Below, piece by piece: positions 12,747 to 47,048 of a DNA stretch of 64,000 nucleotides. Source of the stretch: an uncultured Candidatus Binatia bacterium (GTDB lineage Bacteria > Desulfobacterota > Binatia > UBA9968 > JAJDTQ01); the NCBI GenBank assembly GCA_965221155.1, contig OZ244869.1, positions 4,895,321 through 4,959,320 on the forward strand, in the 5' to 3' direction. Position 1 is the first letter of the stretch, and each line of letters starts with the position of its first letter. The notes beneath the pieces were generated by a model. It saw nothing but the letters and a program-made list of their open reading frames with translations, did no database searches and had not been told where the DNA came from. Both the position numbers and the translations under genes were made by a program.

Positions 12747-12820
12747 CGCGTCTCTCTCCTTTCCGAGTGGACAACGTCCATCCCGAGACCTGGTATCGGC
12801 CGGTGGCGCGGTGCGAGCAC

Positions 12821-19990: not shown

Positions 19991-20023
19991 GTTGCAGTTT
20001 GCAACAAAGTTGCAAACTGCAAC
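19991..20023. promoter_or_regulatory. perfect 15-bp inverted repeat with 3-bp spacer (GTTGCAGTTTGCAAC-AAA-GTTGCAAACTGCAAC): candidate enhancer/UAS for the sigma-54 activator
   Basis: Read directly from the sequence. An AT-rich, bendable segment lies between this site and the -24/-12 element. Confidence 0.45.
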
Positions 20024-20046
20024 ATGCGCGCGCCAAAGTGTCAGGT

Positions 20047-21912: not shown

Positions 21913-21935
21913 GTTGGCGTATTCCCTGAAGTCCA

Positions 21936-24098
21936 TCAGCAATCCTCTCCGTGGTCCACGATAGCCGGGGTTCTTGCCTTTTCGACCGGGCGGGCCAGTT
22001 GCCTTGGGGGGAGTCGCAGGCTGACGCGCACGGTCGCGCCCTTGCCGACGCCGTCGCTTGAAAGGTCGATCCGCCCACCCGATCCAACGACGAAATTCGC
22101 GGCCGAATGGAGACCAAGGCCGGTGCCCGATTCTTTCGTGGTATAGCCGGCGGCAAAGAACATCCGGGTATCCTTACCACCGAACCCGATGCCGTCATCG
22201 ATCACTTCAAGGTTGAGAAAATCCCCCTCCGTGCCGGCCCGTATCCGAATGCGAGGCTCTTCCTTGAGTCCGTCCGACTCTCGGAGCTCGTGAATCGCCT
22301 GCACCGAATTCTGGATCAAATTGACCATCATCTGATGAAACTGACTCTCCTGAATCCTGACCTCTTTCGGCGCCTCCGCGCAGTCGACGTCGATCCGGAT
22401 CCCGCCATTGTCGAGCGAATCCCGCACTACCTTGACGGCATCCGAGAGCGCATTCCGAAGGTTGACATCTTTCCGGCTCATACCCGAACTGCCAGGCGAC
22501 TTCTGGGTACGCACAATATCAGCGATGTGCTTCGCCCTGTCTCTGACGCGCTCAACCGTCCTTGCCAACCCTCTGTTGTGTCTGACGAAGTCTTCGGCGA
22601 GGGCGATAATGAACGGCCTCACCTTCTGGCCTTGCGAGTCGTTCTTGATGTAGTCGATCCAATCATCCCGGTGCGGCTTTATGGCGTCGGCAAGGGCGCG
22701 GAGGCGGCGCACCAACTGATCGTTCATGAAATTCTGGTAGAGGGTCTCGGTTCCCGTGGTTACGCTGTTGATGGCGTTGCCGATGTTGTGAAGGATGGTA
22801 TCGACCACCTCCAACCGTCCTTGGGCGAATGCCTCCACCAATGCCTCTTCAGCGAGCACCCGATCGGTGACGTCGCGGAAAATGAGGACACCCCCTCTGA
22901 TCTCGGCGGCGTCGTTCAGGAGCGGCCGCGCGCTCGTCCAGAGGTAAATGCCGCCGTTCGGGTGGTTCGGCCTGCGGACGAATATGTTCATGTCGTCAGT
23001 GGCCTCGCCGTTGAAGATGGCCCGGGGAAGCGGCAGGTCCTCGTTGTCGATGGGCGTCACACGATCGGAATAGTAATAGACATCGTTGGATTTTTCCGGC
23101 CATTTGCCCTGGCGCCTGACGAGGTATTCCTGGTCGAGAATCTCCTTGGCGCCGGGATTGACGTAGAGGAACTCTCCGCTTTGGTCGCTGACGATGATGC
23201 CTTCCCGGATGCTGTCAAGAACGGTTTGCAGCAGCTCGCTCTGTTCCCTCATCTCACCTATGGTTTGTTGCAGGCGGGTTTCCGTCTCCTTCCTGCCGGT
23301 AATGTCCTGAAAAACGATGACGCCTCCCGCTTGCCTCTTGGAGGTGTCCTTCAGAGGCCGGCCGGTGACGCTGACATAGACGCCCTGGGGGTGCTGCTCA
23401 TTACGCACGAAGACCTCAAGCCCGTCCGTATCCTGGCCGCGCATGGCAAGCACGAGCGGATTCTCGTCCACCGGCAGGAAAGTTTCCTTGTCGAGACGAA
23501 AAACACCATGCAGCGCGGCCCATTCATCGATCTTGTCGGTGGGTTCACGCATGCCGCCGATCCGTACCGCGCCTGAATTGAAAGCCAGGCGCTGCCCGTT
23601 TTGATCCGTAGCGATGACGCCCTCTTCCATACTGTTGAAAATGACGTTCATCATATCGAGTTGATTCCGCATCTCATCGATTTCGCGCTCAAACCGGCTC
23701 ATGGCCTCCCTATGCCCGCTTTCCCGCCCGCGCAGAGAAAGAGCGTTCAGGAGGTTCAGGCGCAGTTGCCGCCGGTCGAACGGCTTCAGCACATAGCCGA
23801 ACGGAAAGGCCGTTGGAGCCGGTGGACACGGGTTTTCCTCGGCGCCGTCCGTCAGACAGACCACGGGAACGTCGAGCTCGCTCCCGATCCGTCCGGCCGC
23901 TTCGAGGCCGTTCACCTCCGCTTCAAGGTCGAGATCGATCAAGGCCGCATCGGGAGCTGCTTCCGGCGCTTTTTCAATGGCTTCGGCCGCGGACGCGGCC
24001 ACCGCGCACACCGTGAAACCAAGACCCCGCAGGCATTGCTCCAAACCCTCGGCGCCGGGCCCGTCGCTCCGGACAACCAGTATCCTTGCATTCGTCAT
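21936..24098 (-). CDS. hybrid sensor histidine kinase (atypical REC - 2x PAS - HisKA/HATPase)
   Basis: N-terminal receiver lacks the DD pair ([10 protein letters not shown]). Two PAS-like regions, then a kinase core (...GTGLGLHSA). Overlaps the regulator gene by 7 nt. Confidence 0.7.
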
Positions 24099-24169
24099 CG
24101 CGTTCTCATCCCTTCCCTTCCATGCTCCTCACGCCTGTCAATGGTGTTCCTGTCCCGAGTCGCCGGCAA

Positions 24170-24215
24170 GGATACAACAATTTTTATAAATTACAAAAAT
24201 TTTTCACATATGAAG
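24170..24215. promoter_or_regulatory. strongly AT-rich island (caacaatttttataaattacaaaaatttttcacatatgaag) in a 556-bp intergenic region
   Basis: Base composition departs sharply from the ~68 % GC background. Divergent promoter region between the kinase gene (<-24098) and the ispH-like gene (24655->). Confidence 0.3.
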
Positions 24216-24265
24216 ACCCCCAGGCCCACGCAGGCCGGATGAGCGGAGCGTGATCCGGCTCGGGA

Positions 24266-24316
24266 AGCCGCACCCGCGTGTGGTTCTCCACCAGGATGGC
24301 GTCCCGCCCCTGGCCA
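24266..24316 (+). other. ~48-bp fragment identical (2 mismatches) to an internal segment of cpaE (13640-13690), antisense to the cpaE mRNA if transcribed from the + strand
   Basis: cccgcgtgtggttctccaccaggatggcgtcccgcccct occurs at both loci. Track ORFs at both loci share the peptides GRDAILVENHTR and ARGGTPSWWRTTRG. Confidence 0.6.
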
Positions 24317-24654
24317 AGCCGCGCCGCCGGGCGCGGAAGCCGGGCTGCCACCAGCGGAGGAGAGGCACGATGCTCGCGTAGTCGTCCGTCCAGGCCCGGA
24401 CGCGGCCGGGAGAACCGAGAGAGGGCCATCCGGGGCAAGGACGCGCAGGTAGATCCGGAACGCCTCCAGTGTGAGCAGGTGGACCGGGATCGCATCGGAG
24501 GCGAAAGTATCGAGGGCAAGGAAATCGAGGGTTCCCTGCCCGCGATCGAGGAGAAGCCGCGCGTGTCGGTGCGAAGGGGCGGCGCGGGATTGTAAAACCG
24601 GCTCCGATTTGCAAACATTCCGCAACCAGGTTCGTTTTCAGTCAGGAGGCTCTC

Positions 24655-25539
24655 ATGGAAGTGGTCAAGGTAGACTTCAAGCACACCAAGGGCATTCCGC
24701 CCAGCGGTCTCTGCGTGGGCGTGCATCGCGCCGGCGCCATGCACCAGAAGATGGTGCAGAAGCACGGCGACGGCATCGCCGTCTGGTCTCTCCGACCCGA
24801 GAACGACTTCATCGCCTTCAAGGCGCTGGAGGACGAAGAGGGCATCCGCTCCACCAACGACATGGACTCCATCAAGGATGAGAAGCTCATCTACGGGGTC
24901 CGCGGCGCGCCGCCGGAGGTTCGCCGGCAGGCGCGGGAGCAGGGTCTCGAGCTCTTGGCCGACGCCACGTGCCCCTTCGTCGTGCAGCAGGAGGAGGCGG
25001 AGTTGGAGCTGCTGGATCAAGGTTGCCACCTGGTCATCCTGAGCAGCCGGACGCACCACGGCATCCCGCGCCTCATGGGCATCGCCAAGGAGAAGGAACG
25101 GGAGGTGTTCATCGTCGAGAACGAGGACGACGTGAAGGACATCCGCCTGACCCGGTTCGAGCCCGTCGGGGTCATCGTCCAGACGACGTTCTGGATGGAC
25201 AGCTACAAGAAGATCATGGCCCTGATCCTGGAGCGGTTCGCCAACGTCCGCATCCGCAACACCGCCTGCATCGACTCGCTGCAGCGGTTGCCGAAGGTCG
25301 AGGAGCTGGCGCGCGACGTGGAGGCGGTGGTCATCTTCGGCTGGACCGAGGGAATGACCAATCGCATGGAGGAGGTGGCGAAGGCCTTCAACGACAACGT
25401 CTACCGCATCGAGAAGATCGAAGACCTGGATCGCGCGTGGTTCACGGGGAAATCCAGGATCGGCATCGTCGGCGCCAACGAGACCACCGATGAACTGGTG
25501 GAAAAGGCCGTGGAACGCATCAAGTCCATGGCCGCCTGA
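24655..25539 (+). CDS. IspH/LytB-family [4Fe-4S] protein, divergent paralog
   Basis: All three cluster cysteines aligned (GLCVGVHRAG; DATCPFVV; NTACIDSLQR) and the QTT motif present. The catalytic Glu (E. coli E126 in GHAGHPEVEG) is replaced (RTHHGIPR) and His74 is Arg. AGGAGG SD upstream. Confidence 0.6.
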   Translation: MEVVKVDFKHTKGIPPSGLCVGVHRAGAMHQKMVQKHGDGIAVWSLRPENDFIAFKALEDEEGIRSTNDMDSIKDEKLIYGVRGAPPEVRRQAREQGLELLADATCPFVVQQEEAELELLDQGCHLVILSSRTHHGIPRLMGIAKEKEREVFIVENEDDVKDIRLTRFEPVGVIVQTTFWMDSYKKIMALILERFANVRIRNTACIDSLQRLPKVEELARDVEAVVIFGWTEGMTNRMEEVAKAFNDNVYRIEKIEDLDRAWFTGKSRIGIVGANETTDELVEKAVERIKSMAA

Positions 25540-25551
25540 ACGGCGAAAAAC

Positions 25552-27018
25552 ATGTCCACGCTCAACACCATGGAAGCCAGGCTACCTTACCACGACCTCC
25601 GCGAATGGATGGCCCGGGCCGACGCCCTGGGCGAGCTCCGCACCGTCACCGGCGCGAGTTGGGAAGAGGACATCGGACTGGCCGCCGATGCGGTGATCCG
25701 GGTCGACGACGGGCCCGCGGTACTCTTCGACGAGGTCCCGGGCTGTCCCAAGGGATTTCGCGTCCTGATCAACACCTTCGCCGGCAAGCGCCGGAACATG
25801 ACGCTGGGATTTCCCGAACACCTCACCAAGCAGGAATTGAGCCAGGCCTTCTTCGACCACTACATCAAGGTGCAGCGGCGGCTGCCCCACGTGGTGGTGG
25901 ACGACGGACCGATATTCGAGAACGTCCTCACCGGCGACGACATCGACGTGACCCGGTTCCCCACCCCCAAGTGGCACGCGGACGACGGCGGCCGCTACAT
26001 CGGCACCGGCTGCTTCTGCGTAACCATCGACCCCGACGAGCGCTGGATCAACGTCGGCACCTACCGGGCCATGGTCCAGGACAAGAAGTCCGTGAGCCTG
26101 CTCTTCGTCCCCGGCAAGCACGCCCACATGCATCGCAAGAAGTACTTCGACAAGGGACAGCCCATGCCCGTGGCGCTGGTGGTGGGCGGCGACCCCATGT
26201 CGTTCTTCGTAGGAGGCACGGAGTTCCCCTACGGCGTGTGCGAGTTCGACGTGGTCGGCGGACTGCGCGGCACCCCCGTCGAAGTGGTGCGAGGCAAGGT
26301 CACCGGCCTCCCCATCCCCGCCAACGCCGAGATCGTGCTGGAAGGATTCCTGACCGCGGACAAGCGCGCGGTGGAAGGGCCGTTTGGCGAATGGACCGGT
26401 TACTATGCCGGCGGCGCCAGCGAACAGCCCACACTCGACATCCGGGCCATCTACCACCGCAACGATCCCATCATCCTGGGAGTTCCTCCGCTGGGAGCCG
26501 GCTCGGACGAGATGGCCCGCTACCGCGCCATCATGCGCTCGGCCATGCTCAAGCAGGAGCTGGCCAACGCCGGCGTCCCGGACGTGACTCAGGTGTGGTG
26601 CCACGAGGTCGGCGCCTCGCGCCTGCTGCACGGCATCGGCATCAAGCAGCGCTATCCCGGCCACGCCCGGCAGGCAGGCCTGCTGGCCTCCACCTGCGGC
26701 TCGGTGGTGTACGGCTGCAAGTTCGTCATCGTGGTGGACGACGACATCGACGTATCGAACCTGGAGGAGTTGATCTGGGCCATGCTCACGCGATGCGATC
26801 CCGAGACCTCCATCGAGATCCTGCGCAAGATGCGCACCTCCCCCGCCGACCCGCGGGTCACGCCGGACCAGCGCAAGGTCCACGACATCACCAACTCCCG
26901 CGTCGTCGTCGACGCCTGCCGTCCCTTCGAATGGTTCGACAAGTACCCCAAGGTCAACGCGCCCAGCCCCGAGGTAGTCCGCAAGGCCCATGAGAAATTC
27001 GGCTATCTGCTGGAGTGA
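25552..27018 (+). CDS. UbiD-family (prFMN-dependent) decarboxylase/carboxylase homolog
   Basis: 488 aa. Family-typical segments (GGRYIGTGCFCVTIDPDE; LLFVPGKHAHMHRKKY; GVPPLGAGSDEMARY). Starts 13 nt after the ispH-like stop. Confidence 0.7.
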   Translation: MSTLNTMEARLPYHDLREWMARADALGELRTVTGASWEEDIGLAADAVIRVDDGPAVLFDEVPGCPKGFRVLINTFAGKRRNMTLGFPEHLTKQELSQAFFDHYIKVQRRLPHVVVDDGPIFENVLTGDDIDVTRFPTPKWHADDGGRYIGTGCFCVTIDPDERWINVGTYRAMVQDKKSVSLLFVPGKHAHMHRKKYFDKGQPMPVALVVGGDPMSFFVGGTEFPYGVCEFDVVGGLRGTPVEVVRGKVTGLPIPANAEIVLEGFLTADKRAVEGPFGEWTGYYAGGASEQPTLDIRAIYHRNDPIILGVPPLGAGSDEMARYRAIMRSAMLKQELANAGVPDVTQVWCHEVGASRLLHGIGIKQRYPGHARQAGLLASTCGSVVYGCKFVIVVDDDIDVSNLEELIWAMLTRCDPETSIEILRKMRTSPADPRVTPDQRKVHDITNSRVVVDACRPFEWFDKYPKVNAPSPEVVRKAHEKFGYLLE

Positions 27019-27088
27019 GAGCCCCCGTGGCCTTTCCCTGCGCGAATCTGCCTGCGCACTGCGCGGTAAAGGTCACTAGGAAGGCCGC

Positions 27089-27643
27089 GTGACTCCCGGC
27101 GCCGTACGTTTCGCCCAAGCCGCCCTGGTAGGGGACTCCGACCCTCCGGGGCATACCCTGGCGCTGGCGGAGCACGCCGGCGAGATGCTGGGGCGCCGCG
27201 GCATCACCCTGGTCACCGGCGGCCGCGGTGGAGTGATGGAAGCCGCCGCCCGTGGAGCCGCCCGGGCCGGCGGCCTGACCGTGGGGATCACCCCCGGCAC
27301 CGACACGAACTCGGCCAACCCCTGGTGTGACATCGTCCTGCCCACCGGCCTGGGCCACGCCCGAAACGTCCTGACGGCGCTGGCCGGCGACTTCATCGTG
27401 GCCGTGGGCGGCGGCGCCGGCACCCTCTCCGAACTGTGCTTCGGATGGGTCCACGGACGGCCCATCTACGTCCTGCAGGGATCGGGAGGATGGTCGGACA
27501 GGCTCGCCGGCGGCGCGCTGGATCACCGAGCCTCTTCGGTCATCGTCACCTGCGACGGCGTCGAAGCGCTGGAACGCGAAGTGGTACGGTTCTGCGCCGC
27601 GAAGGAGCTCAGGATCAGAGAGCCGGACGGACGTCCTATGTAG
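27089..27643 (+). CDS. TIGR00725 / LOG-like Rossmann-fold protein
   Basis: GTG start with AGGAAGG SD. Motif LVTGGRGGVMEAAARGAARAGGLTVGI ... GGGAGTLSE. The stop codon is supplied by the adjacent REP flank (atgTAGgggcggg). Confidence 0.55.
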   Translation: MTPGAVRFAQAALVGDSDPPGHTLALAEHAGEMLGRRGITLVTGGRGGVMEAAARGAARAGGLTVGITPGTDTNSANPWCDIVLPTGLGHARNVLTALAGDFIVAVGGGAGTLSELCFGWVHGRPIYVLQGSGGWSDRLAGGALDHRASSVIVTCDGVEALEREVVRFCAAKELRIREPDGRPM

Positions 27644-27700
27644 GGGCGGGTTTCAAACCCGCCCGTGCCCGCATCGGGCTGTCGGGCGATACAGGCTCGC
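27639..27700. repeat. single REP unit
   Basis: tgtaGGGGCGGGTTTCAAACCCGCCCgtgcccgcatcgggctgtcgggcgatacaggct; the same extended flank recurs at 35260. Confidence 0.85.
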
Positions 27701-27734
27701 GCGCGGCCGTGCCGCTGAACGGCGACGGTAGTTC

Positions 27735-28802
27735 ATGAACGCACGCTCACAGGCATTGTTCTGGCTCCTGGTCCTCGCAGCGGCGTTGCTGCTGGTCTGG
27801 CTCCTGAGCGCCATCCTGCTTCCCTTCGTGCTGGGCATCGCCCTCGCCTATTTTCTGGACCCCGCCGCGACGTGGCTGGAACGGCGCGGCTGGTCACGCA
27901 TGGCGGCCACCGTTCTCATCGCCGCCGGCTTCTTCAGCGCCGGACTGTTGCTGTTGCTGCTGCTCATTCCACCGGTGGCGGAACAGGCTGCGGACCTGCT
28001 CCAGCGGCTTCCGGGGCTGGTCTCCCGCCTGGTCCAATCCATCGGCCCGCTCCTTGCCCGGATTCTGAACGCCATCGGTGCTGAACAGCCCGAGGGGCTG
28101 CACCAGACCCTGGCCGGGAACCTGCAGCGGACGGCCGCCCTGGGACTGGGGCTGCTCAAGGGTCTGATGGGCGGCGGCGCCGCGGTCGTCAACGTCGCTT
28201 CCCTCCTCACCATCACGCCCCTCACCACCTTCTACGTGCTGCGGCAATGGCCCGTGATCATCGCCTCCGTGGACGACTGGCTGCCCCGCGACCACGCCGA
28301 CGCGGTGCGCGGCATCATGCGCGACATCGACGTGGTGCTGAAGGGATTCCTCCACGGCTCCGTCATCGTCTGCGCGGCGTTGGCGATCTTCTACGGCATC
28401 GCCCTTTCGCTGGCGGGTCTCGACTACGGCCTGACCATCGGACTCGCTACCGGCGCCGTTTCCTTCATCCCCTACGTGGGAACGATCTTCGGGCTGGTCT
28501 CGTCCATGGGAGTCGCCTTCCTGCAGTTCTGGCCCGACTGGATCCGCATCGCCGTGATCCTGGGAATCTTTCTCGTGGGGCAGTTGGTGGCCGACTACGT
28601 GCTGACCCCGCGGGTCATGGGCAGCCGCCTGGCCGTCCATCCCCTGTGGCTGATCTTCGGCCTGTTCGCCGGCGGCGCCCTCTTCGGCTTCGTCGGCATG
28701 CTGCTCTCGGTACCCGCCACCGCCGCCATCGGCGTCCTCACCCGCTTCTTCATCGGGCGCTACAAGGAATCTTCGTTATATCGAGGATCGAGCGGATCCT
28801 GA
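27735..28802 (+). CDS. AI-2E family transporter (UPF0118/PerM-like)
   Basis: 355 aa, ~8 TM segments, typical topology. Confidence 0.7.
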   Translation: MNARSQALFWLLVLAAALLLVWLLSAILLPFVLGIALAYFLDPAATWLERRGWSRMAATVLIAAGFFSAGLLLLLLLIPPVAEQAADLLQRLPGLVSRLVQSIGPLLARILNAIGAEQPEGLHQTLAGNLQRTAALGLGLLKGLMGGGAAVVNVASLLTITPLTTFYVLRQWPVIIASVDDWLPRDHADAVRGIMRDIDVVLKGFLHGSVIVCAALAIFYGIALSLAGLDYGLTIGLATGAVSFIPYVGTIFGLVSSMGVAFLQFWPDWIRIAVILGIFLVGQLVADYVLTPRVMGSRLAVHPLWLIFGLFAGGALFGFVGMLLSVPATAAIGVLTRFFIGRYKESSLYRGSSGS

Positions 28803-28874
28803 CGCTGGGCAAACAGGGAGCCTGCCCAGGGGACCCGCTGCACCGTTTCGTTCCGCACACCATACAACCGTGGT

Positions 28875-29290
28875 TTCACGAACGCGGACGGGTTTGAAAC
28901 CCGCCCCTACATCCGCCTCTCCGGACCTGGCGAGGAATGGTCGGACATTGGTCCCCGTCCTGTCCGGCCGGGACGCGCCAAGGCGGACGGCGGGGGGTGT
29001 TTTCGCCCGGTGGGCGCGTGGGAACGCGATGCCTGGCGACTTCGCCTTGCATGAACGTGGTGCATGTAGGGGCGGGTTTCAAACCCGCCCGTACATCCCC
29101 CTCTCCGGACCTGGCGGAATGGTCGGACGTTGGTCCCTGTCCTGTCCGGGCTGGGGACGCGTCAACGCGGACCGCCGGTGGTGTTTTCGCCCGTTGGGCG
29201 CGTGGGAACGCGATGTCTGGCGACTTCGGCATGCACGAACGTGGTGCATGTAGGGGCGGGTTTCAAACCCGCCCGTGTACAAGATTAGCG
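28875..29290. repeat. REP array B: 2 x ~190-bp composite units (3 REP cores), 5' flank of the RAYT gene
   Basis: REP cores near 28875, 29067 and 29254; the intervening 170-bp segments are >90 % identical. Confidence 0.85.
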
Positions 29291-29312
29291 GGTCCGGCCG
29301 ATATATTGGAAC

Positions 29313-29855
29313 ATGAACACGCACCGTGACACGAACCAACCTGCACGCCGCTCCATCCGGCTGCGTGGTTTCGACTATGCCCAACAGGGGGCCTATTTCG
29401 TGACCATCTGCACGCACCAACGCGCATGCCTGTTCGGTGAAATCGCGGACGATGAGATGCGATTCAACACAACCGGGAGCGTGGCACACGGCGTGTGGAT
29501 GGGACTACCCACGCACTATCCCCACGTTGAGCTGGATGCCTTCGTCGTGATGCCGAACCATGTCCACGGCATCGTCGTCCTGGGATCAGGCATCCAACCG
29601 ACGCCCGTGAAGCTAGAGTCCCTGTCGGAGATCATTCGGGGATTCAAGACCTTCTCGGCTCGCCAAATCAATCGGTCACGGTCCAGGCCGGGAAACCGTG
29701 TGTGGCAACGCAACTACTACGACCATGTCATCCGCGATGAAGTCGGCCTCGACCGAATCCGGCAATACATCGTGGACAACCCGGCCCGCTGGGCGGAAGA
29801 TCCGGAAAACCCGGCCCGTCGGTCTGACGGGCGCGGGCGGGACCAAGGCGGGTGA
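29313..29855 (+). CDS. REP-associated tyrosine transposase (RAYT; IS200/IS605-like Y1 HUH)
   Basis: HUH motif MPNHVHGIVVL; catalytic Tyr region RVWQRNYYDHVIRDEVG; N-terminal FDYAQQGAYFVTICT. Flanked by REPs in opposite orientation. Confidence 0.85.
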   Translation: MNTHRDTNQPARRSIRLRGFDYAQQGAYFVTICTHQRACLFGEIADDEMRFNTTGSVAHGVWMGLPTHYPHVELDAFVVMPNHVHGIVVLGSGIQPTPVKLESLSEIIRGFKTFSARQINRSRSRPGNRVWQRNYYDHVIRDEVGLDRIRQYIVDNPARWAEDPENPARRSDGRGRDQGG

Positions 29856-29884
29856 CCGGTCCTACACCAACGCGGCTGCCGGCC

Positions 29885-30810
29885 CGAGCGCGGGCGGGTT
29901 TCAAACCCGCCCCTACGTCCGCCTCTCCGGACTTGGCGGAATGGTCCGACGTTGGTCCCTGTCCGGGCCGGGGCCGGGGACGCGCCAATGCGGACCGCCG
30001 GGGGTGTTTTCGCCCGGCCTGCCGGCCAGCGCGCGGGCGGGTTTGAAACCCGCCCCTACAATCGCCTCTCCGGACCTGGCGGAATGGTCGGACGTTGGTC
30101 CCTGTCCGGGCCGGGACGGGGATGCGTCAATGCGGACCGCGGGTCGTGTTCTCGCCCGGCCTGCCGGCCAGCGCACGGGCGGGTTTGAAACCCGCCCCTA
30201 CGTCCGCCTCTCCGGACCTGGCGGAATGGTCGACGTTGGTCCCTGTCCGGGACGGGACGGGGATGCGTCAATGCGGACCGCGGGTCGTGTTCTCGCCCGG
30301 CCTGCCGGCCCGTGCGCGGGCGGGTTTGAAACCCGCCCCTACAATCGCCTCTCCGGACCTGGCGGAATGGTCGGACGTTGGTCCCTGTCCGGGCCGGGAC
30401 GGGGATGCGTCAATGCGGACCGCGGGGGGTGTTCTCGCCCGGCCTGCCGGCCAGCGCACGGGCGGGTTTGAAACCCGCCCCTACGTCCGCCTCTCCGGAC
30501 TTGGCGGAATGGTCGGACGTTGGTCCCTGTCCGGGCCGGGACGGGGATGCGTCAATGCGGACCGCTGGGGGTGTTTTCGCCCGGCCTGCCGGCCAGCGCA
30601 CGGGCGGGTTTGAAACCCGCCCCTACGTCCGCCTCTCCGGACTTGGCGGAATGGTCGGACGTTGCGCCCTGTCCGGGACGGGGCCGGGGACGCGTCAATG
30701 CGGACCGCGGGGGGTGTTTTCGCCCGGTGGGCGCGTGGGAACGCGATGCCTGGCGACTTCGCCTTGCATGAACGTGGTGCATGTAGGGGCGGGTTTCAAA
30801 CCCGCCCGCG
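29885..30810. repeat. REP array C: 6 x ~142-bp composite REP units plus one 190-bp unit, 3' flank of the RAYT gene
   Basis: REP cores at ~29891, 30035, 30178, 30317, 30460, 30602 and 30786. Unit is REP + CTACGTCCGCCTCTCCGGACCTGGCGGAATGGTCGGACGTTGGTCCCTGTCCGGGCCGGGACGGGGATGCGTCAATGCGGACCGCGG...CCGGCCAGCGCACG. Many track ORFs here are translations of the repeat. Confidence 0.9.
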
Positions 30811-30842
30811 CCTCGGTGTCACACGACTGGGACGGGGAGCGC

Positions 30843-31610
30843 TCACTGGGTCAGCTTGCGCCGCATGAGGCGTGCCGCGTAGGCGATCAGCACTGTGGAG
30901 AGGCCCAGAATATACGCGACGTCCCACAACAGCGTGGGCGATGCCGGGCCGAAGAACGAGGCGCGTGCGAGCCGCACGGGGTGGAGCAGCGGCAGGCATT
31001 CGGCCACCCAGAGCCAGGACGCCGACAGGCGTTCCTCCAGGGGGAAGAACACCGACGAGAAGAGGAACAGGGGCGTGAGGAACAGGGTGAAGTAGAAGCT
31101 GTAGAGTTCGATCGTGCCGATGCGCAGGGTGAAAGCCAGCCCGATGGCCGAGAAGAGAAGACCCGTGAGGGGTATCACCGGCAGCACCCACAGAGCCTGC
31201 GGCAGCGGCGCAAGCCCGGCCGCGGCCACCACAAGCACGAAGGACAGGCCGTAGACGCACGACCGGGTCATGGCCCACAGCAACTCGCCGGCGACCACGT
31301 CCGCTGGCTGGATCGGAGTGGTCAGCATGGCGTCGTAGGCCTTCTCGATATTCATGCGCACGAAGATGTTGTAGGTCACCTCGAAGCTGGCGCCGTTCAT
31401 GGCGGCGACGCACACGAGCCCCGGCGCCAGGAACTGGATGTAGGAGGTACCGCCCATGGTGGTGATGTAGGCGCCGAGGCCCACGCCGAGGGACACCAGA
31501 TAGAGGACCGGCTCGAAGAAGTTGGGCAGGATGTTCCATCTCCAGGTCCGGCGGTACATGGTGGCGTTGCGCCGCCACACCGCCAGGGCGTACCGCCAGG
31601 ACAGGGTCAC
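30843..31610 (-). CDS. ABC-2 type transporter permease
   Basis: 255 aa, 6 TM segments, ABC-2 topology. Overlaps the ATPase gene by 4 nt. Confidence 0.7.
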   Translation of the reverse strand: MTLSWRYALAVWRRNATMYRRTWRWNILPNFFEPVLYLVSLGVGLGAYITTMGGTSYIQFLAPGLVCVAAMNGASFEVTYNIFVRMNIEKAYDAMLTTPIQPADVVAGELLWAMTRSCVYGLSFVLVVAAAGLAPLPQALWVLPVIPLTGLLFSAIGLAFTLRIGTIELYSFYFTLFLTPLFLFSSVFFPLEERLSASWLWVAECLPLLHPVRLARASFFGPASPTLLWDVAYILGLSTVLIAYAARLMRRKLTQ

Positions 31611-32536
31611 GGGCCTTCCTCGAGACGGGTGCCGGTGAGGGTCAGGAACACGTCCTCCAGATTGGTGGGCCGCACCGCCACGGCACGCGCACCGGCTCCG
31701 GCCTGGAGCCCGAGCCTGATCCGCTCCAGCAGCAAGGCGGGATCATCCAGATAGATCATGCTGCGGTTGCCCGAGCGGTAGCGCGGCAGGCTGTCGTCGA
31801 GGCCCCGTAACAGGGCGTGTTCCTGTTCCGGCGTTGCCTCGAGCTCCACCGCCTGCGGGGCCAGGTAGCGTTCGATGAGCTCCTCCGGCGCGCCCTGGGC
31901 GATGACGTCGCCGGCGGACATGATGGCGACGGTGTCACACAGCCGCTGGGCCTCGTCCATGTAGTGGGTGGTCAAGAGAACGGTGGCGCCGTCGCGGCGC
32001 AAATCGCGCACCCGGGACCAGAGAGCCAGGCGCACCGCCGGGTCGAGGCCGGTGGTGGGCTCGTCCAGGATCAGCAGCTCCGGACGGTTCATCAGCGAGA
32101 GGGCCACCGCCAGCCGGCGCTGATAGCCGCCGGAAAGCTTGGCCACCGGTACGTCGGCGTGGGAGCGCAGCTCCATGAAGTCGATGAGTTCTTCCACCCG
32201 CCGCGCCAGCCCGGCGCCGTCCATGAGGTGGTAGCGCCCGAAGATGGCGAGGTTTTCCCGCGGCGACAGGGTCTCGATGAGAACGTTCTGCTGCAGCGTG
32301 ACGCCCAGACGTTGGCGCACCGCGCGCACGTTGCGCGACACATCCATGCCGAACACGCGGATCTGGCCGCTGGTGGGCAGGGTGACGCCGTAGATCATGC
32401 GCAGCGTCGTGGTCTTGCCGGCGCCGTTGGGACCCAGCAGACCGAAGCAGACGCCCCGCGGAACGTTCAGGATGAGCTCGTCTACGGCCACCCGCTCGCC
32501 GAAGCGCTTGGTGACGCCGGAAACTTCAACGATCAC
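31607..32536 (-). CDS. ABC transporter ATP-binding protein
   Basis: Walker A GPNGAGKTT, signature LSGGYQRRL, Walker B LILDEPTTGLD. Confidence 0.85.
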   Translation of the reverse strand: MIVEVSGVTKRFGERVAVDELILNVPRGVCFGLLGPNGAGKTTTLRMIYGVTLPTSGQIRVFGMDVSRNVRAVRQRLGVTLQQNVLIETLSPRENLAIFGRYHLMDGAGLARRVEELIDFMELRSHADVPVAKLSGGYQRRLAVALSLMNRPELLILDEPTTGLDPAVRLALWSRVRDLRRDGATVLLTTHYMDEAQRLCDTVAIMSAGDVIAQGAPEELIERYLAPQAVELEATPEQEHALLRGLDDSLPRYRSGNRSMIYLDDPALLLERIRLGLQAGAGARAVAVRPTNLEDVFLTLTGTRLEEGP

Positions 32537-32566
32537 GCGCAGTGGCCGTGAGCCCGTGGCGAGGCA

Positions 32567-33631
32567 TTAGTTGAGGCCGTAGAAACGGCGCGCGTTGTCT
32601 CCCAGCACCGCCGCCTTGTGCTCCTCCGAGAGCTCCGTGTGGTTGCGCGTCTCCTCGATCATCTTCCGGGCCGCCGGCAGGTCCACCTCGTGAGGATAGT
32701 CGGACGAGTAGGCGAACGGCTCGACGCCCACGCGACGGGCCAGATACGGCAGGCTGACGTCGTTTCCCTCGCAGCCGATAAGGATCTGGCCGCTGGCGAT
32801 GTACTCAGGCAGCGGACGGCACGAGAGACCTTCCAGCTCCGCGTCGCGTTCCATGCGGTCGGCGATGCAGGTGAGCCAGGCGCAGCCGCCCTCCAGAAAC
32901 GCCACCTTGAGGGTCGGGTAGCGGTCGAACCAGCCATGATAGATGAACGAAACCAAGCCGATCATGAGCGGGACCGGGTGGTGCAGCAGCCGGGAGCCCA
33001 ACCGGCTGCTGAACGAGTCCAGGCCCACGCCGCGGTTGGAGCCGCCGTGAATGCCCAGCACGCAGCCGAGCTCCGCGGCCTCCTCGTAGACGGGTGCGTA
33101 GAACTCGTGGCCCAGGTGGAGATCCAGACCAGTGGAGGGAAGCATGCCGCCCAGCAGGCCCAGCTCCTTCACGCACCGGCGTAGCTCCGCGGCCGCGGCC
33201 TTGGGGTCCTGCATGGGCAGCAGCGCGATCGGATGGAGCCGTTTGCTGATGCCCCGGTACCGCTCGGTGACATAGTCGTTGTAGCCGCGGCACACCTTGA
33301 CGGCGTAGCTGGGCTGCTGGATGAAGCCCAGGGACAATCCTTCGGTGGCGTAGAGAACCGAGTCCGTGATCTCCGCTTTCTTCACGAACTCGAAGATGTC
33401 CTCGCCCGAGCCCGGCCGGCCGTCACTGGCTCTCACCGGGTTGATGCGGTTCTCCGCGGTCATTTCCTCGGTCTCCGGGTAGTGCATACCGTCGATGGAG
33501 GGAAACACGCCCGCCCGGTTCCGGGGCGGATTCAACGCGTACTCCCTCGCTTCCGGGACCATGTACTCCGCCATCTCGGGTATGGACTCGATCAGATGGC
33601 CGTCGGCGTCGACAACGGATATCTCGCTCAT
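32567..33631 (-). CDS. amidohydrolase-2 family metal-dependent hydrolase
   Basis: Track ORF 32567..33757 runs into the MITE. True start MSEISVVDADGHLIES (ATG 33629-33631, GAGG SD). TIM-barrel hydrolase motifs. Confidence 0.65.
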   Translation of the reverse strand: MSEISVVDADGHLIESIPEMAEYMVPEAREYALNPPRNRAGVFPSIDGMHYPETEEMTAENRINPVRASDGRPGSGEDIFEFVKKAEITDSVLYATEGLSLGFIQQPSYAVKVCRGYNDYVTERYRGISKRLHPIALLPMQDPKAAAAELRRCVKELGLLGGMLPSTGLDLHLGHEFYAPVYEEAAELGCVLGIHGGSNRGVGLDSFSSRLGSRLLHHPVPLMIGLVSFIYHGWFDRYPTLKVAFLEGGCAWLTCIADRMERDAELEGLSCRPLPEYIASGQILIGCEGNDVSLPYLARRVGVEPFAYSSDYPHEVDLPAARKMIEETRNHTELSEEHKAAVLGDNARRFYGLN

Positions 33632-33669
33632 TTCAACCTCCCGCGTGGTCAGGGTTCGCAGAATATGCC

Positions 33670-33857
33670 TAGTGTTGTGTCTCACAAATAGGTTTACAAA
33701 TCTGCTGGTCTTTTTCGCCGTCGGCTGCGTTGCTCTTCCTCGCGTGGTGCACGCCACAGGAGGGCGACCGCCGGTCGCCCCTACAGGTCATCGCGCCTTG
33801 CCGACGACGAAAAATCCTGCGCATCTTTGCAAACCTATTTGTGAGACACAACACTAG
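33670..33857. mobile_element. MITE copy 2 (~188 bp; termini TA|GTGTTGTGTCTCAC ... GTGAGACACAACAC|TA)
   Basis: Perfect 14-bp inverted termini flanked by TA. Conserved GGTTTACAAA arms. Centre is a different hairpin (GGGCGACCGCCGGTCGCCC). Confidence 0.75.
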
Positions 33858-33891
33858 TGTCCTGTGCCGGGCGGCAGCGCCGGGCGGGCGC

Positions 33892-33950
33892 GGGCGGGTT
33901 TGAAACCCGCCCCTACAGCGGATGTCCGGTTCCTGCGGCGCAGGCCACTA
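33892..33950. repeat. single REP unit abutting the MITE
   Basis: GGGCGGGTTTGAAACCCGCCCctacagcggatgtccggttcctgcggcgcagg. Confidence 0.85.
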
Positions 33951-34007
33951 GTGGCCACTACCACCGGGTACCGGTGACGTCAACCGGGACAAAGCGAAAC
34001 GCCCGCG

Positions 34008-35219
34008 TCAGTCCCTTCGGAACCTCAGGGGCAACACGATGCACGCACCTAACAGCAGACAGGCGCCAGGGAAGAAGAAGGCCGTCATGATGCCGAAACG
34101 TTCGCTGAGATATCCTGCCAACGTGGGCGCGGGCACCACCAGGATGTGGGTGCCGAAGGACACCAGCCCGAAGGAGGATGCCTGGCTGTCTTTTCCCGCC
34201 GCGTCCAGTGCCGCCGCCGTCGTCACGTTGGCCACCGTGTAGAAGAGAAACCCGATGGCGACGACCACGATCGCCAGCGCCACTTCGTTGGTCGCCCACT
34301 GCAGCAGGAAGTATACAACCCCAAGGAGCACCAGCGAAGGCGCCAGTACCGGCTTGCGGCCCAAACGGTCCGACAGCACCCCCATCACGGGCTGGGCCAC
34401 CAGGCCCGACACCGCCATGCACGTGAGATAAATGCCCATGAGCCCCAGTCTGTAGCCCAGGTGCTCGGCGAGGTAGATGGGCAGAAACGTCATGGTCACC
34501 TGCCGTGCGATCTGGTTGAAACTCCGCACCAGCATCACTGCGAGGATCACCGGATTCCGCACCAGCTCCTTCATCTCCCGGAACAGCTTGGGCTTCTTCG
34601 CCGGAATCTCGTCGCCCTCGAACATGCGCGCGGAATAGATCCACACCACCCCCGCCGCGGCGAGCCCTACCAGGAACTGGCTTTGCATCACCCGTTGCCA
34701 TGCGAAGTTCTCCAGCAAAAAACCCATGGCCAGCGGGGTCACGGTGGTGCCCAGGGTGGCGCCCATGCCGTAGACCGCAATGGCCGTGGCCCGGCGCTCC
34801 GGGAACTGGTTCGAAAGCGAGGCCACCGACGCCGGATGAAACAGCGTGGTTCCTATGGCCAGGAGCGCGACGGCGAGCAGCGCCCACCCGTAGCCGGGCA
34901 GTGCCCCGAACACCCAGCAAAAAAGCGCCATGCACACCAGCGACGACGTCACGATGAGCCCGCGCCGGTGAACCCAGGTGTCGGCAAGCATTCCCGACGG
35001 GACGTCCAACGCGGCCTGAACGAACATCCGCATGGAGGCGAGACCGCCCACCTGCACGTCGTTGAGTCCCATGCTCGACTTGAAGACCGGCCCGAGGACC
35101 CACTGAAGCTGCATGAACCAGTGGATGACGGCATGGGCCAGGGTGATGAAACCCAGGAGCCTGAGGCGCTGTCGCCCAACCTGGCCGGCCAGAGTGCGGA
35201 GCGATTGGAGTGTCTTCAT
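34008..35219 (-). CDS. MFS transporter
   Basis: 403 aa, 12 TM segments, MFS motifs (GMLADTWVHRRG; LSDRLGRK). Confidence 0.75.
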   Translation of the reverse strand: MKTLQSLRTLAGQVGRQRLRLLGFITLAHAVIHWFMQLQWVLGPVFKSSMGLNDVQVGGLASMRMFVQAALDVPSGMLADTWVHRRGLIVTSSLVCMALFCWVFGALPGYGWALLAVALLAIGTTLFHPASVASLSNQFPERRATAIAVYGMGATLGTTVTPLAMGFLLENFAWQRVMQSQFLVGLAAAGVVWIYSARMFEGDEIPAKKPKLFREMKELVRNPVILAVMLVRSFNQIARQVTMTFLPIYLAEHLGYRLGLMGIYLTCMAVSGLVAQPVMGVLSDRLGRKPVLAPSLVLLGVVYFLLQWATNEVALAIVVVAIGFLFYTVANVTTAAALDAAGKDSQASSFGLVSFGTHILVVPAPTLAGYLSERFGIMTAFFFPGACLLLGACIVLPLRFRRD

Positions 35220-35259
35220 GAGGGTGCGCCGAATCAGGCAGCCGCTGATATCGGACGCC

Positions 35260-35323
35260 CGATGTAGGGGCGGGTTTCAAACCCGCCCGTGCCCGCATCG
35301 CTCTACCGGCCGATGCAGGTTCC
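35260..35323. repeat. single REP unit
   Basis: gatgtaGGGGCGGGTTTCAAACCCGCCCgtgcccgcatcgctctaccggccgatgcaggttcc. Confidence 0.85.
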
Positions 35324-36801
35324 TAACCCGTTCCATTGACCCCGCGGGCCTGGAGCACGAGCCGGGTCTTCATTTCGTGGAGCCGCGCTTCGAGGCCCAC
35401 CGGATATTCGTGCGGATTCACCCGGCGTTTGATGCTGTTGTGGAAACCCGCCAGCTCGGCCTGGGCCCGCTCCCTGGCCGCGTGCACGGACGGCACGTCG
35501 TAGACCAGCCCGCCTTCGCGGAACACCGGGATCAGCAGATCCTCGCACTCGGTGCCGCCGGAGATGTGTTTCCTGCGGGTCATGTTCATGGGGTCGACGA
35601 TGGTGCAGCCGTCGGCGATGCCCAGGGTCTCATCGTAGATGGCGTCCGCCAGGAACCGGTCCCCACGGCGGAAACGCCGCGTCTGAAGGATCCCCGGCGT
35701 CGACACCTTGATGGCCTGCTCCGAGAGCTTCACCTTGTTGATCCACTCGTTCCCCTCGGACCGCACGCACGACAACTTGTAGACGCCGCCGAGAGCGGGC
35801 TGATCATAGCCGGTGGCGAGCTTGGTGCCGACGCCCCAGACGTTGATGCGGGCGCCCTCCTCCTTGAGCGACGCGATCAGGTGCTCGTCGAGATCGTTGC
35901 TGCCGACGATGACCGCGTCCGGGAAACCGCTCTCGTCCAGGATACGGCGCGCTTCGATGCTGAGAAAGGCCAGGTCTCCGGAGTCCAGTCGAATGCCCAC
36001 CATCTCGTGGCCCCGCTCCCGCAGCTTGCGGCCGATCTCCACCGCCTTGCGGACGCCGTTCAGGCTGTCGAACGTATCCACCAGCAACAGACAATTGTTG
36101 GGCATGGCGTCGGCGTAGGTGTCGAAGGCCTCCATCTCGTCGTCGAAGGACAGCACCCAACTGTGGGCGTGGGTCCCCTTCACCGGGATGTCGAAGAGCT
36201 TGCCGGCAAGGGCGTTGGAGGTCCCGGTGCAGCCGCCCACGTAGGCCGCCCGGCTCGCCGCCAGCGCTCCGTCGAACCCCTGCGCCCTTCTCAATCCGAA
36301 CTCCAGCACCGGCTCGCCGCGGGCGGACTGGCACACCCGCGCCGCCTTGGTGGCGATGAGGGTCTGAAAGCAGATGATGTTGAGGAGCACCGTCTCCAGG
36401 AGCTGGCACTGCAGGATGGGACCCCGGACCCGCACCAGGGGCTCGTGCGGGAACACCACCGTTCCCTCGGGGATGGCGTCCACGTCACAAGCGAACCGGC
36501 AGTCCCGCAGATAGTCGAGAAAGGCGTCCTCGAACAGCCGCTCGTCATCGTTCCCACGCAACTGCGACAGATAGTCGAGATCGCTCTCGTCGAACCCGAA
36601 ACGGTTCAACACCCCCACCACGTGCCCGAGCCCGCAACCCACCGCAAACCCGCCATGGTAGGGATTTTCACGAAAGGAGAGGTGAAACACCGCTTCCTTT
36701 TGAGCGGTTCCGGACTTCCAGTAGGCGTACGCCATGGTGAGCTGGTAAAGGTCCGTCAGCAGCGCGAGGGAGTTGTTGTAGAGCTGTTCGAGAGTATGCA
36801 T
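35323..36801 (-). CDS. pncB: nicotinate phosphoribosyltransferase
   Basis: Track ORF 35323..36831 trimmed to [10 protein letters not shown]. NAPRTase family similarity over the whole length. Confidence 0.8.
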
Positions 36802-36912
36802 ACGGGAGCACTTGATGTGTCGGGGCGACACCCACGGCCAGTTTAGGTGCTGGCACGCAGGTAATCAAGCGGCTCCGGGAGCCGGTATCGTCCGACAGCA
36901 CAGGCCGGGCAC

Positions 36913-37063
36913 GGGCGGGTTTGAAACCCGCCCCTACAGGGTGGGTGGCGGGGGTAGACGCGCTCCATCTACCCCCCCCCCCGAGGGCTTGCCTACGGGG
37001 GGTGGCAGCCCTCTCAACTCCCTCCGGGGGGGAGAGGTGTAGGGGCGGGTTTCAAACCCGCCC
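36913..37063. repeat. inverted REP doublet (REPIN-like) with ~110-bp spacer containing a C11-12 homopolymer
   Basis: Forward REP at 36913 and reverse REP at 37043. Spacer reads ggtagacgcgctccatctacccccccccccgagggc. Confidence 0.75.
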
Positions 37064-37154
37064 GTGCCCGAACACGACGACGGCGGCCGGAACGCTACGA
37101 CCGGGACGAAGCGCCGAATTCCGGGAATGCGGTGTTGCCATGCTCCGTGGCATT

Positions 37155-37241
37155 TCTTCATCATGATGTTGGCCACGTTCTTGGCTCGGGTGAACCCGCC
37201 CTCGACCATGGCAAAGCCCGCCTGCATGAGGAACACATGCT
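37155..37241 (+). other. ~85-bp fragment ~93 % identical to amtB codons ~50-80 (window 800-886), antisense orientation relative to amtB
   Basis: Aligned directly. Minus-frame peptide FLMQAGFAMVEGGFTRAKNVANIMMK against amtB FLMQAGFAMVEGGFTRAKNAVNIMMK. The mismatches are mostly synonymous. Confidence 0.65.
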
Positions 37242-37351
37242 TGCGCCGGCCGCCCAATTGTTTCACAATCACTGCACGTATTTTGGGCACTGCCTCGATT
37301 CCATGCGGTCGCCAACGGCCCTTAACCCACGTCATTGTTCGGAGGTGTTAC

Positions 37352-38118
37352 AGGTGGCAAAGCGAAAAGAGAGCCTTCGGTACGACCGGGAAGCTGCCAG
37401 GCAGGCGCGCCTTGATCTCGCCGCCGCCTACCGTCTCGCGGTCCGCTTCGGGTTTCACGAAGGGATCGACAACCACTTCAGTCTTCTCCTGCCCGGCCGA
37501 GATGACCTGATGTTGTTGAACCCTTATCCGCTCCACTGGTCGGAAGTGACCGCCGGCAACCTTCTTCTCGTGGACTTCCAGGGCAACCTCATCGAGGGCT
37601 CGGACCAGGTCGAGTCCACCGCGCTGCACATCCACGGGCCGCTCCACCAGGCCAACCCGAAGGATTTCCGCTGCCTCCTGCACACCCACATGCCCTACGC
37701 CACCGCCATCGCCTGCCGTCAGGGAGGCCGCCTCGAGATGGTGCACCAGGTCAGCACCCGGTTCGAGAACGATGTCGCCTATCTCGAGGACTACAACGGG
37801 TTGGTGCTCGACCGAACGGAAGGCGGACGCATCGCTCATGTAATGGCGGACAAGAACGTGCTGTTCATGGCCAACCACGGGGTGATCACCGCCGGGCGGA
37901 CCGTGGCGGAGGCCTTCGACCGGCTGTATTTCCTGGAACGCGCCTGCAGGGTGCAGGTGCTGGCGGACATGGGCGGACACCGGCTCCAGCACCTGTCACG
38001 GGAAACCCTCGACTACCTCAGCCGTCAACGAGGCGGCGGAGAGGCGCTGGCGGCCGAGCGCCACTTCAGCGCCCTGAAACGCATACTGGATCGCGAAGAG
38101 CCGGACTACGCGGGTTGA
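37352..38118 (+). CDS. class II aldolase/adducin-family protein
   Basis: Start placed at GTG 37352 with GGAGG SD (the track ORF starts further upstream, inside the amt fragment). Motifs AAAYRLAVRFGF and FMANHGVITAGRT. Confidence 0.6.
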
Positions 38119-38155
38119 CGCGGGTCCCTGTCGCGGGGTGCCGAGACTGTTGCGC

Positions 38156-38176
38156 GGGCGGGTTTGAAACCCGCCC
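38156..38176. repeat. single REP
   Basis: GGGCGGGTTTGAAACCCGCCCctacatc. Confidence 0.85.
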
Positions 38177-38252
38177 CTACATCTCGTGATCGAACCTTGC
38201 CGAGAAATGCCGGCAGGCCTGGAAACCCTCCCCTAACCTTGTTTTGGGGCGT

Positions 38253-46938: not shown

Positions 46939-47026
46939 GTCTTGTGTCGAGCGTCCTGTCAGGTTGATTGGGTTGGCAATTCGCTGGTGTCTTGGATACG
47001 CCGGCCGCGTCGTTCGTGCCGCCGCG

Positions 47027-47047: not shown

Positions 47048-47048
47048 C

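Follow-up and report, generated by a model that had tools for sequence, protein, structure and literature searches.

Nearly all that is understood of repetitive extragenic palindromes (REPs) and their REP-associated tyrosine transposases (RAYTs) comes from work on Enterobacteria and Pseudomonas. In the REPtron of Escherichia coli, the transposase gene tnpA_REP/yafM is bordered by bacterial interspersed mosaic elements (BIMEs) (Ton-Hoang et al., 2012, PMC3333891; structure 4er8). REPtrons carry variable numbers of BIMEs, for which a model of local amplification has been put forward (PMC3333891). In Pseudomonas fluorescens SBW25 (Bertels and Rainey, 2011, PMC3116915), tandem clusters of REPINs, hairpin-forming REP doublets, repeat 'including the flanking sequences', with one such cluster beside each RAYT; separate GI-GIII REP arrays elsewhere in that genome have a combined period of 184 bp (112 + 72). 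The superfamily of GTAG-tagged REPs (Di Nocera et al., 2013, PMC3733652) and the IS200/IS605 insertion sequences (IS608, ISDra2) are the other systems to be compared. Here we analysed 64,000 nucleotides (the window) of an uncultured Candidatus Binatia bacterium (contig OZ244869.1, positions 4,895,321 to 4,959,320). Between an AI-2E-family transporter gene and an ABC-2 gene, this DNA holds a 180-residue open reading frame (ORF) at 29313-29855 with tandem repeats flanking both sides. The locus is most likely a REPtron, that is, a TnpA_REP-type RAYT bracketed by cognate REP hairpins, whose long repeat units are tandem duplications of a REP together with its ordinary, unstructured flanks.

The encoded protein scored 30.5 bits against the Pfam model Y1_Tnp, over the cut-off of 23. 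A profile built from 44 homologous sequences had a sole match in the PDB, 4er8 (E. coli TnpA_REP; E = 1.2e-5), with the HUH motif and Y115 aligned. The profile was needed for this match; a single-sequence phmmer search reached 4er8 at E = 0.32, which is too weak. 4er8_A was also the top Foldseek match of the AlphaFold2 model (predicted local distance difference test score, pLDDT, 85), with a root-mean-square deviation of 2.6 Å, and IS200/IS605 transposases followed at ranks 2-30. Sequence identity to E. coli TnpA_REP is about 21%, and the homologues are named 'REP element-mobilizing transposase RayT' in their source records. Look-ups with the exact sequence of this protein, and with that of the neighbouring transporter, returned no record. 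With the profile and fold matches to 4er8, the inverted REPs that flank the gene and a GTAG-tagged REP that is the same as the dispersed copies, the coding sequence (CDS) is identified as a predicted RAYT, in agreement with the first-pass annotation of this DNA. The protein features are as follows.

29313-29855, plus strand: CDS of the RAYT, a TnpA_REP-type Y1 HUH transposase of 180 aa (from the ORF, the profiles, the model and dN/dS).
29559-29567, plus strand: HUH codons H83 V84 H85, aligned to PEHMH of 4er8; H83 and H85 are invariant in the 44 homologues.
29766-29768, plus strand: Y152, the predicted catalytic Tyr, in IRQYIVDNP (RQYIVDNP), aligned to E. coli Y115 and invariant in the 44 homologues.
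29580-29609, plus strand: low-confidence loop LGSGIQPTPV after the HUH strand (residues 91-100, pLDDT 62).

The protein thus shows the features of a Y1 HUH transposase: the fold, the HUH motif and one predicted catalytic Tyr, located on the C-terminal helix. Profile alignment placed the HUH motif (H83-V-H85) where it had been proposed, but moved the catalytic Tyr from NYYDH, which pairs with PRFWEH of E. coli TnpA_REP, to Y152, the counterpart of Y115; Y115F of the E. coli enzyme is an inactive catalytic mutant (PMC8266576). The ratio of non-synonymous to synonymous substitution rates (dN/dS) of the RAYT gene, 0.24-0.38 against three relatives, indicates purifying selection. The taxa of the homologues alone (Cyanobacteria, Chloroflexota) suggest that the protein belongs to Group 4 of Bertels (PMC5581495).

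The loop LGSGIQPTPV looks like the decayed remnant of an in-frame REP that is common in the homologues. Many RAYTs of the clade contain an in-frame REP inside the CDS directly after the HUH strand; the peptide VGAGFKPAPT, which is GTAGGGGCGGGTTTCAAACCCGCCCCTAC translated, is the majority state in the 44-sequence alignment. At the DNA level the internal REP is intact in at least 12 loci, including L007, L008, L010, L011, L012, L014, L020, L033, L034, L046, L052 and L061. Among these are cyanobacterial RAYT genes whose internal REP shares its long loop with other REPs of the respective genome, and in about 10 loci the internal REP is the only REP within 10-20 kb. No description of an in-CDS REP after the HUH strand was found in the literature searched, which included a search for a REP-derived peptide.

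The cognate REP, 5'-GTAG-GGGCGGG-TTTCAAA-CCCGCCC-GYGC, spans about 29 nt and consists of a 9-bp stem, a 3-nt loop and the GTAG tag. Copies with C at the loop centre are termed forward (+), and those with G and a 3' CTAC reverse (-). The first-pass annotation had noted that a palindrome is scattered over the whole window, and this was borne out: the 21-bp core GGGCGGGTTTSAAACCCGCCC is present in 32 copies at no more than 2 mismatches, against an expectation of 0 (0 matches in 100 shuffles). The GTAG/CTAC tag accompanies nearly all of them, so that the window holds an over-represented REP with a 5' GTAG. The array REP is identical to the dispersed copies, which lie in intergenic DNA, mostly as singlets with their own flanks of about 35 nt; two other doublets (36913/37043 and 56487/56544) have spacers unrelated to the array units. 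Literature searches with the REP sequence, and for Binatia together with REP, returned nothing relevant.

A forward REP at 29254 lies 5' of the RAYT gene and a reverse REP at 29892 lies 3' of it, and the gene is therefore bracketed by inverted REPs, as it also is at the RAYT loci L004, L005, L084 and L085 of related genomes. The complete REP order is (-) 28886, hybrid 29070, (+) 29254, RAYT, (-) 29892, 30035, 30177, 30318, 30460 and 30602, and (+) 30787. When units are delimited by counting from each REP core, the locus resolves into the following parts.

28886-29069, plus strand: U1, an upstream full unit of 184 bp, made of a reverse REP core (CTAC 3'), segment A (CTACATCCGCCTCTCCGG), variable segment B of about 95 nt and conserved segment C of about 58 nt ending in GTAG.
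29070-29253, plus strand: U2, an upstream full unit of 184 bp with a hybrid REP (GTAG 5', GTAC 3'); a closing REP follows at 29254.
29250-29278, plus strand: RAYT-proximal REP, forward (GTAG, core 29254-29274, then GTGT).
29279-29312, plus strand: RAYT leader, with the motif CCGGCCGATA.
29856-29891, plus strand: J0, the RAYT 3' flank preceding the first downstream REP (from the unit alignment).
29892-30601, plus strand: D1-D5, five head-to-tail short units of 141-143 bp, each with a reverse REP (CTAC flank), A, B and J.
30602-30786, plus strand: D6, the terminal full unit of 185 bp (reverse REP, A, B and C); the closing REP core, 30787-30807, comes next.
30783-30811, plus strand: closing REP, forward (GTAG, core 30787-30807, then GCGC), forming an inverted pair with the D6 REP.

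Tandem Repeats Finder (TRF) reported the upstream array at 28889-29276 (period 184 x 2.1, 90% matches) and the downstream array at 29876-30727 (period 142 x 6.0, 93% matches, score 1427). Two upstream units had indeed been predicted, with a period of 190 bp where we find 184 bp. Downstream, six units of about 142 bp plus one of 190 bp had been described; short units of that length and one long unit are present, but as five short units and the 185-bp D6, with 7 REPs. All full units (U1, U2 and D6; 184-185 bp) share the order REP, A (CTACGTCCGCCTCTCCGG), B and C, with the GTAG of C just before the next REP, and U1 is 89% identical to D6. Every short unit ends in J (~18 nt), which repeats the final ~18 nt of J0. 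Judged by this alignment, the downstream array is a tandem duplication of the RAYT-proximal flank plus REP, A and B. The novel junction, where B meets J, falls ~18 nt beyond the REP core and coincides with a short microhomology (CCGG/GCC). Identity between D2 and D4 reaches 98.6% and both carry CTACAATCGCC, D1, D3, D5 and D6 carry CTACGTCCGCC, and TRF scores a period of 283 slightly above the period of 142; the likeness of D2 and D4 marks a two-unit (283-bp) duplication.

The first-pass annotation took the REP units to be unusually long. The REP itself is of classical length; each unit carries 120-163 bp of non-REP DNA, and the units are long because this ordinary DNA is repeated with a normal REP. 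The spacers fold no better than shuffled sequences (z = -0.2 to -1.35) and show no excess of promoter- or terminator-like sites. An Rfam search of the units gave nothing at the gathering score and only two chance-level matches to PtaRNA1 (E ~0.5-0.9). Neither the 142-bp type of spacer nor that of the 184-bp doublet recurs elsewhere in the window, and the pattern of REP plus segment A was not found in JGI metagenomes; a DNA pattern specific to the unit likewise had no match in genome_contigs. By eye, the leader motif CCGGCCGATA recurs 3' of dispersed window REPs (...CGGCCGATAC...) and in the RAYT leaders of L001, L004 and L084; a blastn-short search with the leader gave no significant match.

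Several other classes were considered and rejected. A BIME- or REPIN-type structure, as first proposed, does not describe units that hold a single REP each: the REPs of D1-D6 all have one orientation (CTAC 3') and 120-nt spacers, and inverted pairs are formed only by D6 with the closing REP and by U1/U2, 163 nt apart. The 142-bp array is head-to-tail and is therefore neither an alternating BIME nor a string of REPIN hairpins; moreover, the spacer of the 184-bp doublet is unique in the window and the dispersed REPs are mostly singlets. Membership of IS200/IS605 was dismissed on the score of the IS200 model NF033573 (23.5 bits against a cut-off of 55) and on the lack of a tnpB-like ORF near the RAYT in the window's ORF list. 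CRISPR arrays have unique spacers, and those here are 90-99% identical to each other. A coding repeat was rejected on the periods of 142, 157 and 184, which are not divisible by 3; the long ORFs across the arrays are therefore artefacts of repetition.

Such spurious ORFs (172-458 aa, including ORFs of 257 aa and 458 aa) cross the window's arrays at 29698-30471, 30095-30613 and 30378-31754, and at L001 (10522-11493) a gene caller annotated a 323-aa protein without a Pfam match over the array. Array-derived 'proteins' with GGFETRPY or AGLKPAPT repeats likely pollute protein databases. In practice, gene callers put spurious ORFs on arrays of this kind, and short-read assemblies break there.

The interval that holds the locus lies between two convergent genes.

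27735-28802, plus strand: AI-2E-family transporter gene.
30843-31610, minus strand: ABC-2 membrane protein gene.

Proteins of the neighbouring genes cluster with those of 'Deltaproteobacteria' metagenome-assembled genomes. Four long-read relatives, with flanking genes 90-95% identical in nucleotide sequence to those of the window, were compared at this site. At the syntenic position (AI-2E transporter, RAYT, ABC-2 gene), the RAYT of L084 stands between two inverted REP pairs, one to each side (1+1 units). L085, from a sample identical to that of L084 and with an identical RAYT, has one extra upstream unit (2+1). L004, in genome OZ253480.1, has 3.3 x 156 bp upstream and 4.6 x 157 bp downstream, and the window has 2+6 units. 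Because unit numbers differ at one syntenic site, copy number changes in place, which supports the expansion in situ beside the transposase that had been suggested before. The cassettes themselves differ in segment B even between close relatives. C plus REP is similar at the cassette ends of all four relatives and resembles a terminal inverted repeat (by eye, without formal alignment); a blastn-short search with segment C of the window found no significant match in the other loci. More widely, 12 of the 77 RAYT loci of the clade, from many phyla, have a REP-bearing tandem array (period 45-157) within ~1 kb of the gene; this count is a lower bound, because several arrays reach contig ends.

The orthologous regions L002 and L003, with ~92% nucleotide identity to the window over the region, have no RAYT and only a 90-bp intergenic region at the site. 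No REP core was found in the 21 kb and 15 kb, respectively, that are orthologous to window 20000-38200, in which the window has 16 loose REP matches, with REPs at several of the intergenic sites corresponding to those of L002/L003. The transporter gene of L002 is only 0.07 synonymous substitutions per site (dS) from that of the REP-bearing L084; genomes as close as these can therefore be wholly unlike in REP content. Across the relatives, REPs are present or absent along with the RAYT.

The RAYT paralogues of the sister genome OZ253480.1 each come with a different spacer type, and units of the RAYT-flank types recur 6-7 kb away, at 96% (L004 type) and 85% identity; the corresponding place in the window has a single REP. 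This genome carries two cassettes, L004 at the window's site and L005 between cpaB and tadC. Their RAYTs are two diverged paralogues, 74% identical in amino acid sequence, and the L005 RAYT is 91% identical (dS 0.17) to the L084 RAYT at the window's site. The cpaB-tadC site is empty in the window, L086 and L087. In the window, only a degenerate REP relic ccGGTTCAAACCCGCC follows the cpaB stop codon (9380-9382), at 9383-9436, where OZ253480.1 has the complete 1.7-kb L005 cassette.

The anatomy of the locus, the homology of its protein and the differences among genomes are direct observations; beyond these, we infer an enzymology and an order of events for the REPtron. The ancestral cassette would have had one inverted REP pair per side, as L084 still has. 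A first duplication may have joined the end of B to J0 at the CCGG/GCC microhomology, by illegitimate recombination or by RAYT strand transfer, and unequal homologous exchange, or slippage during replication, would then have lengthened and shortened the series of ~142-bp direct repeats, at times by two units together. By homology with E. coli TnpA_REP, the protein would bind the GTAG-tagged REP hairpin in single-stranded DNA and cut and rejoin nearby via Y152 through a 5'-phosphotyrosine intermediate, with H83 and H85 binding the metal (PMC3333891); the same cut-and-join activity may seed REPs elsewhere in the genome. The place of the junction and the two-unit periodicity favour recombination in the later expansion. 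A direct contribution of the RAYT is plausible, given the arrays on both sides of RAYTs and the RAYT-flank units 6-7 kb away in the sister genome.

Some observations weigh against this account. The RAYT narrowly misses the equivalog cut-off of the NCBIfam model REP_Tyr_transpos (NF047646), with 76.4 bits against 80 and a match to positions 6-133 of the 146 in the model. The exact place of the duplication junction is ambiguous by a few bases, so that recombination and RAYT-catalysed joining are not told apart there. The distant RAYT-flank units of the sister genome imply that such units are not purely local by-products everywhere. Finally, the adjacent transporter gene differs by dS 0.07-0.29, and genomes whose flanking genes are dS 0.18-0.29 apart have RAYTs at the shared site that are dS 0.31-0.65 apart; with RAYT divergence above that of the flanking gene, simple vertical inheritance of a static gene is a poor fit.

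The arrays could instead have been built mainly by the RAYT, through the 'rolling-circle-like' cleavage, priming and strand transfer proposed for BIMEs, with the 142-bp module as the true substrate that can be seeded elsewhere. TnpA_REP joins REP and linker sites in vitro and assembles tandem copies (PMC3333891), the RAYTs of the window, L004 and L005 each have arrays directly on either side, in mirror-image orientation in the latter two, and the paralogue-specific spacers of the sister genome reappear at a distance. Yet the junction between B and J is not at the CTAC cleavage site, and the D2/D4 periodicity matches the expectation for unequal homologous exchange. There are also arrays with other spacers far from any RAYT, for example at 12820-13385, and the unit type of the window is absent from the rest of its 64 kb. 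We therefore regard construction mainly by the RAYT as possible but doubtful. The dS excess and the two cassettes of OZ253480.1 bear on a different alternative. The pattern fits relocation or exchange of whole cassettes, or old paralogues that were sorted differently among lineages; relocation of whole cassettes would be a tentative reading, and we think it rather improbable. On this alternative, RAYT and REP units together would be an autonomous, mobile, IS-like (insertion sequence-like) element that relocates as a unit and is not a fixed, domesticated gene. The filled and empty states of the cpaB-tadC site, the greater closeness of the L005 RAYT to that of L084 than to that of L004 in its own genome, and the C plus REP cassette ends all speak for it. 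At the window's site, however, no clean empty/filled junction or target duplication can be defined, the DNA beyond the outermost REPs differing in every genome. Homologous recombination via shared REPs, or differential loss of paralogues, would yield the same pattern, and the IS200 model score lies far under its cut-off, with no tnpB; we consider an autonomous element unlikely. A further proposal combines both ideas: RAYT paralogues would amplify an adjacent module of 130-185 bp, made of the REP and a paralogue-specific spacer, and seed it at REP-occupied sites, and the whole cassette, bounded by the C plus REP inverted repeat noted by eye, would relocate between intergenic REP sites, making the replicating entity larger than the REP or REPIN. 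It is suggested by the modules 6-7 kb away, by the filled and empty site and by the RAYT divergence above that of the flanking genes; we consider it speculative, with the odds clearly against it.

Two other readings carry far less weight. The arrays might be cis-elements or RNA genes that are selected as such: a block that acts as terminator or insulator between the AI-2E and ABC-2 genes, binding sites for proteins, or a small RNA released by processing. In favour of this, the AI-2E and ABC-2 genes are convergent, effects of REPs elsewhere on termination and on the stability of mRNA have been reported (background given in PMC3733652), and spacers of the window and of L005 have a GCGYCAAYGCGGAC-like motif in common. 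With spacers that fold like shuffled sequence and match Rfam only at chance level, a segment B that is not conserved among close relatives, freely varying unit numbers, and the close relative L002 having just the 90-bp intergenic region with an ordinary hairpin, a selected function of this kind is very improbable. Nor do we give much credence to an assembly artefact in copy number or in the entire array. Tandem repeats are error-prone in assembly, and short-read contigs with close RAYT homologues are only 762-2379 bp, as expected if such regions break assemblies. But the units differ by 1.4-10.5%, at many positions and in a structured way, and are therefore not the identical copies of a collapsed or over-expanded assembly. 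Four independent long-read assemblies share the architecture, each with its own spacer types, and the window is part of a 5.36-Mb contig.

The preferred reading, a REPtron with tandemly duplicated flanks, places the locus close to described systems. With the E. coli REPtron it shares the Y1 HUH fold, the HUH motif and the position of the catalytic Tyr, GTAG-tagged REP borders, a variable number of flanking repeats (between strains there, between relatives here) and the inference of local amplification. It differs in having head-to-tail REPs of one orientation with 120-nt spacers, where E. coli BIMEs are alternating y/z REP pairs with short linkers, and in occupying two sites among the Binatia relatives, where the E. 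coli REPtron is at a single locus. Like SBW25, it has ordered tandem REP-containing units with flanks beside the RAYT, and each RAYT has its own repeat type; unlike in SBW25, the Binatia RAYT paralogues have an identical REP core and vary in the spacer alone, each unit has one REP in place of a REPIN hairpin doublet, and the host is of a different phylum. In the GTAG-tagged superfamily, too, the REP is a short stem-loop whose GTAG, at one end, is unpaired; its dimers are of the head-head, tail-tail and head-tail kinds, and RAYT genes are flanked by such repeats or by composite terminal inverted repeats (REP plus adjoining sequence). The text of PMC3733652, as searched, contained neither the Binatia REP sequence nor the host. 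IS200/IS605 elements have the same fold and subterminal hairpins recognised in single-stranded DNA, but the low IS200 model score, the lack of tnpB and a hairpin dispersed many times without the gene set the locus apart. The arrangement is thus not unusual, as the first-pass annotation had held it to be: tandem clusters of REPs or REPINs together with their flanks, in some cases beside a RAYT, have been described (PMC3116915, PMC3733652, PMC3333891). The present case is set apart by the Binatia host, the single-REP head-to-tail units, the paralogue-specific spacers around an identical REP and the hints of cassette mobility.

REP arrays also occur away from any RAYT. A second one in the window, at 12820-13385 (68 bp x 8.3, TRF score 942), has units with a REP tagged on both sides (GTAG...CTAC) and a 47-nt spacer with a small hairpin TCCTGCGCCGCAGGA, which folds well (z = -4.7). 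It sits between a Tad-locus ATPase gene (T2SSE, 11364-12746) and a 410-aa ORF, and is positionally orthologous to the 109-bp x 3.9 array of L005 (14822-15251). At ~33672-33860, an insertion relative to L002 and L084 looks like a miniature inverted-repeat transposable element because of its ~30-bp terminal inverted repeats (TAGTGTTGTGTCTCACAAATAGGTTT ... AAACCTATTTGTGAGACACAACACTA). A GTAG-tagged palindrome of a second type, GGGCGACCGCCGGTCGCCCCTAC, lies within this insertion, which is located at CTAGTG beside a REP element; one copy of TAGTGTTGTGTCTCAC lies at the empty RAYT site of L002 (11066-11082). A dispersed REP element of ~95 nt, with a 34-nt left arm, the REP and a 38-nt right arm ending in CTAG, is present at L084 8845-8940 and window 33860-33950. 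It is cleanly missing from L002 (~13959), with the break exactly after YTAG; this one case is consistent with insertion 3' of the tetranucleotide or with precise excision. At 46956-47057, a 102-nt tRNA-Pro(TGG) call by ARAGORN overlaps the REP core at 47028-47048, its length suggesting either a REP abutting or inserted at the tRNA 3' end or an over-extended call.

Elsewhere, window 2471-3250 and L001 2330-2849 hold 147/267-bp tandem repeats (87-89% matches) that look like coding sequence for acidic, proline-rich stretches, and a similar 270-bp repeat is found in a TPR-protein gene of the sister genome. An 83-bp stretch at window 37154-37236 is 96% identical to L001 533-615, at a non-syntenic position in or beside the ammonium-transporter gene region of L001 (sister genome).

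E. coli and Pseudomonas already provide examples of the REPtron layout, and the locus described here is a real, fairly ordinary feature in a new phylum, which leaves the current picture of REPtrons unchanged. With a clear REPtron now in Candidatus Binatia, related long-read genomes are at hand that differ in array copy number, in cassette position and, in one case, by the complete absence of RAYT and REPs. This Binatia genome set is a useful natural series for the spread and loss of REPs and the movement of RAYT cassettes.

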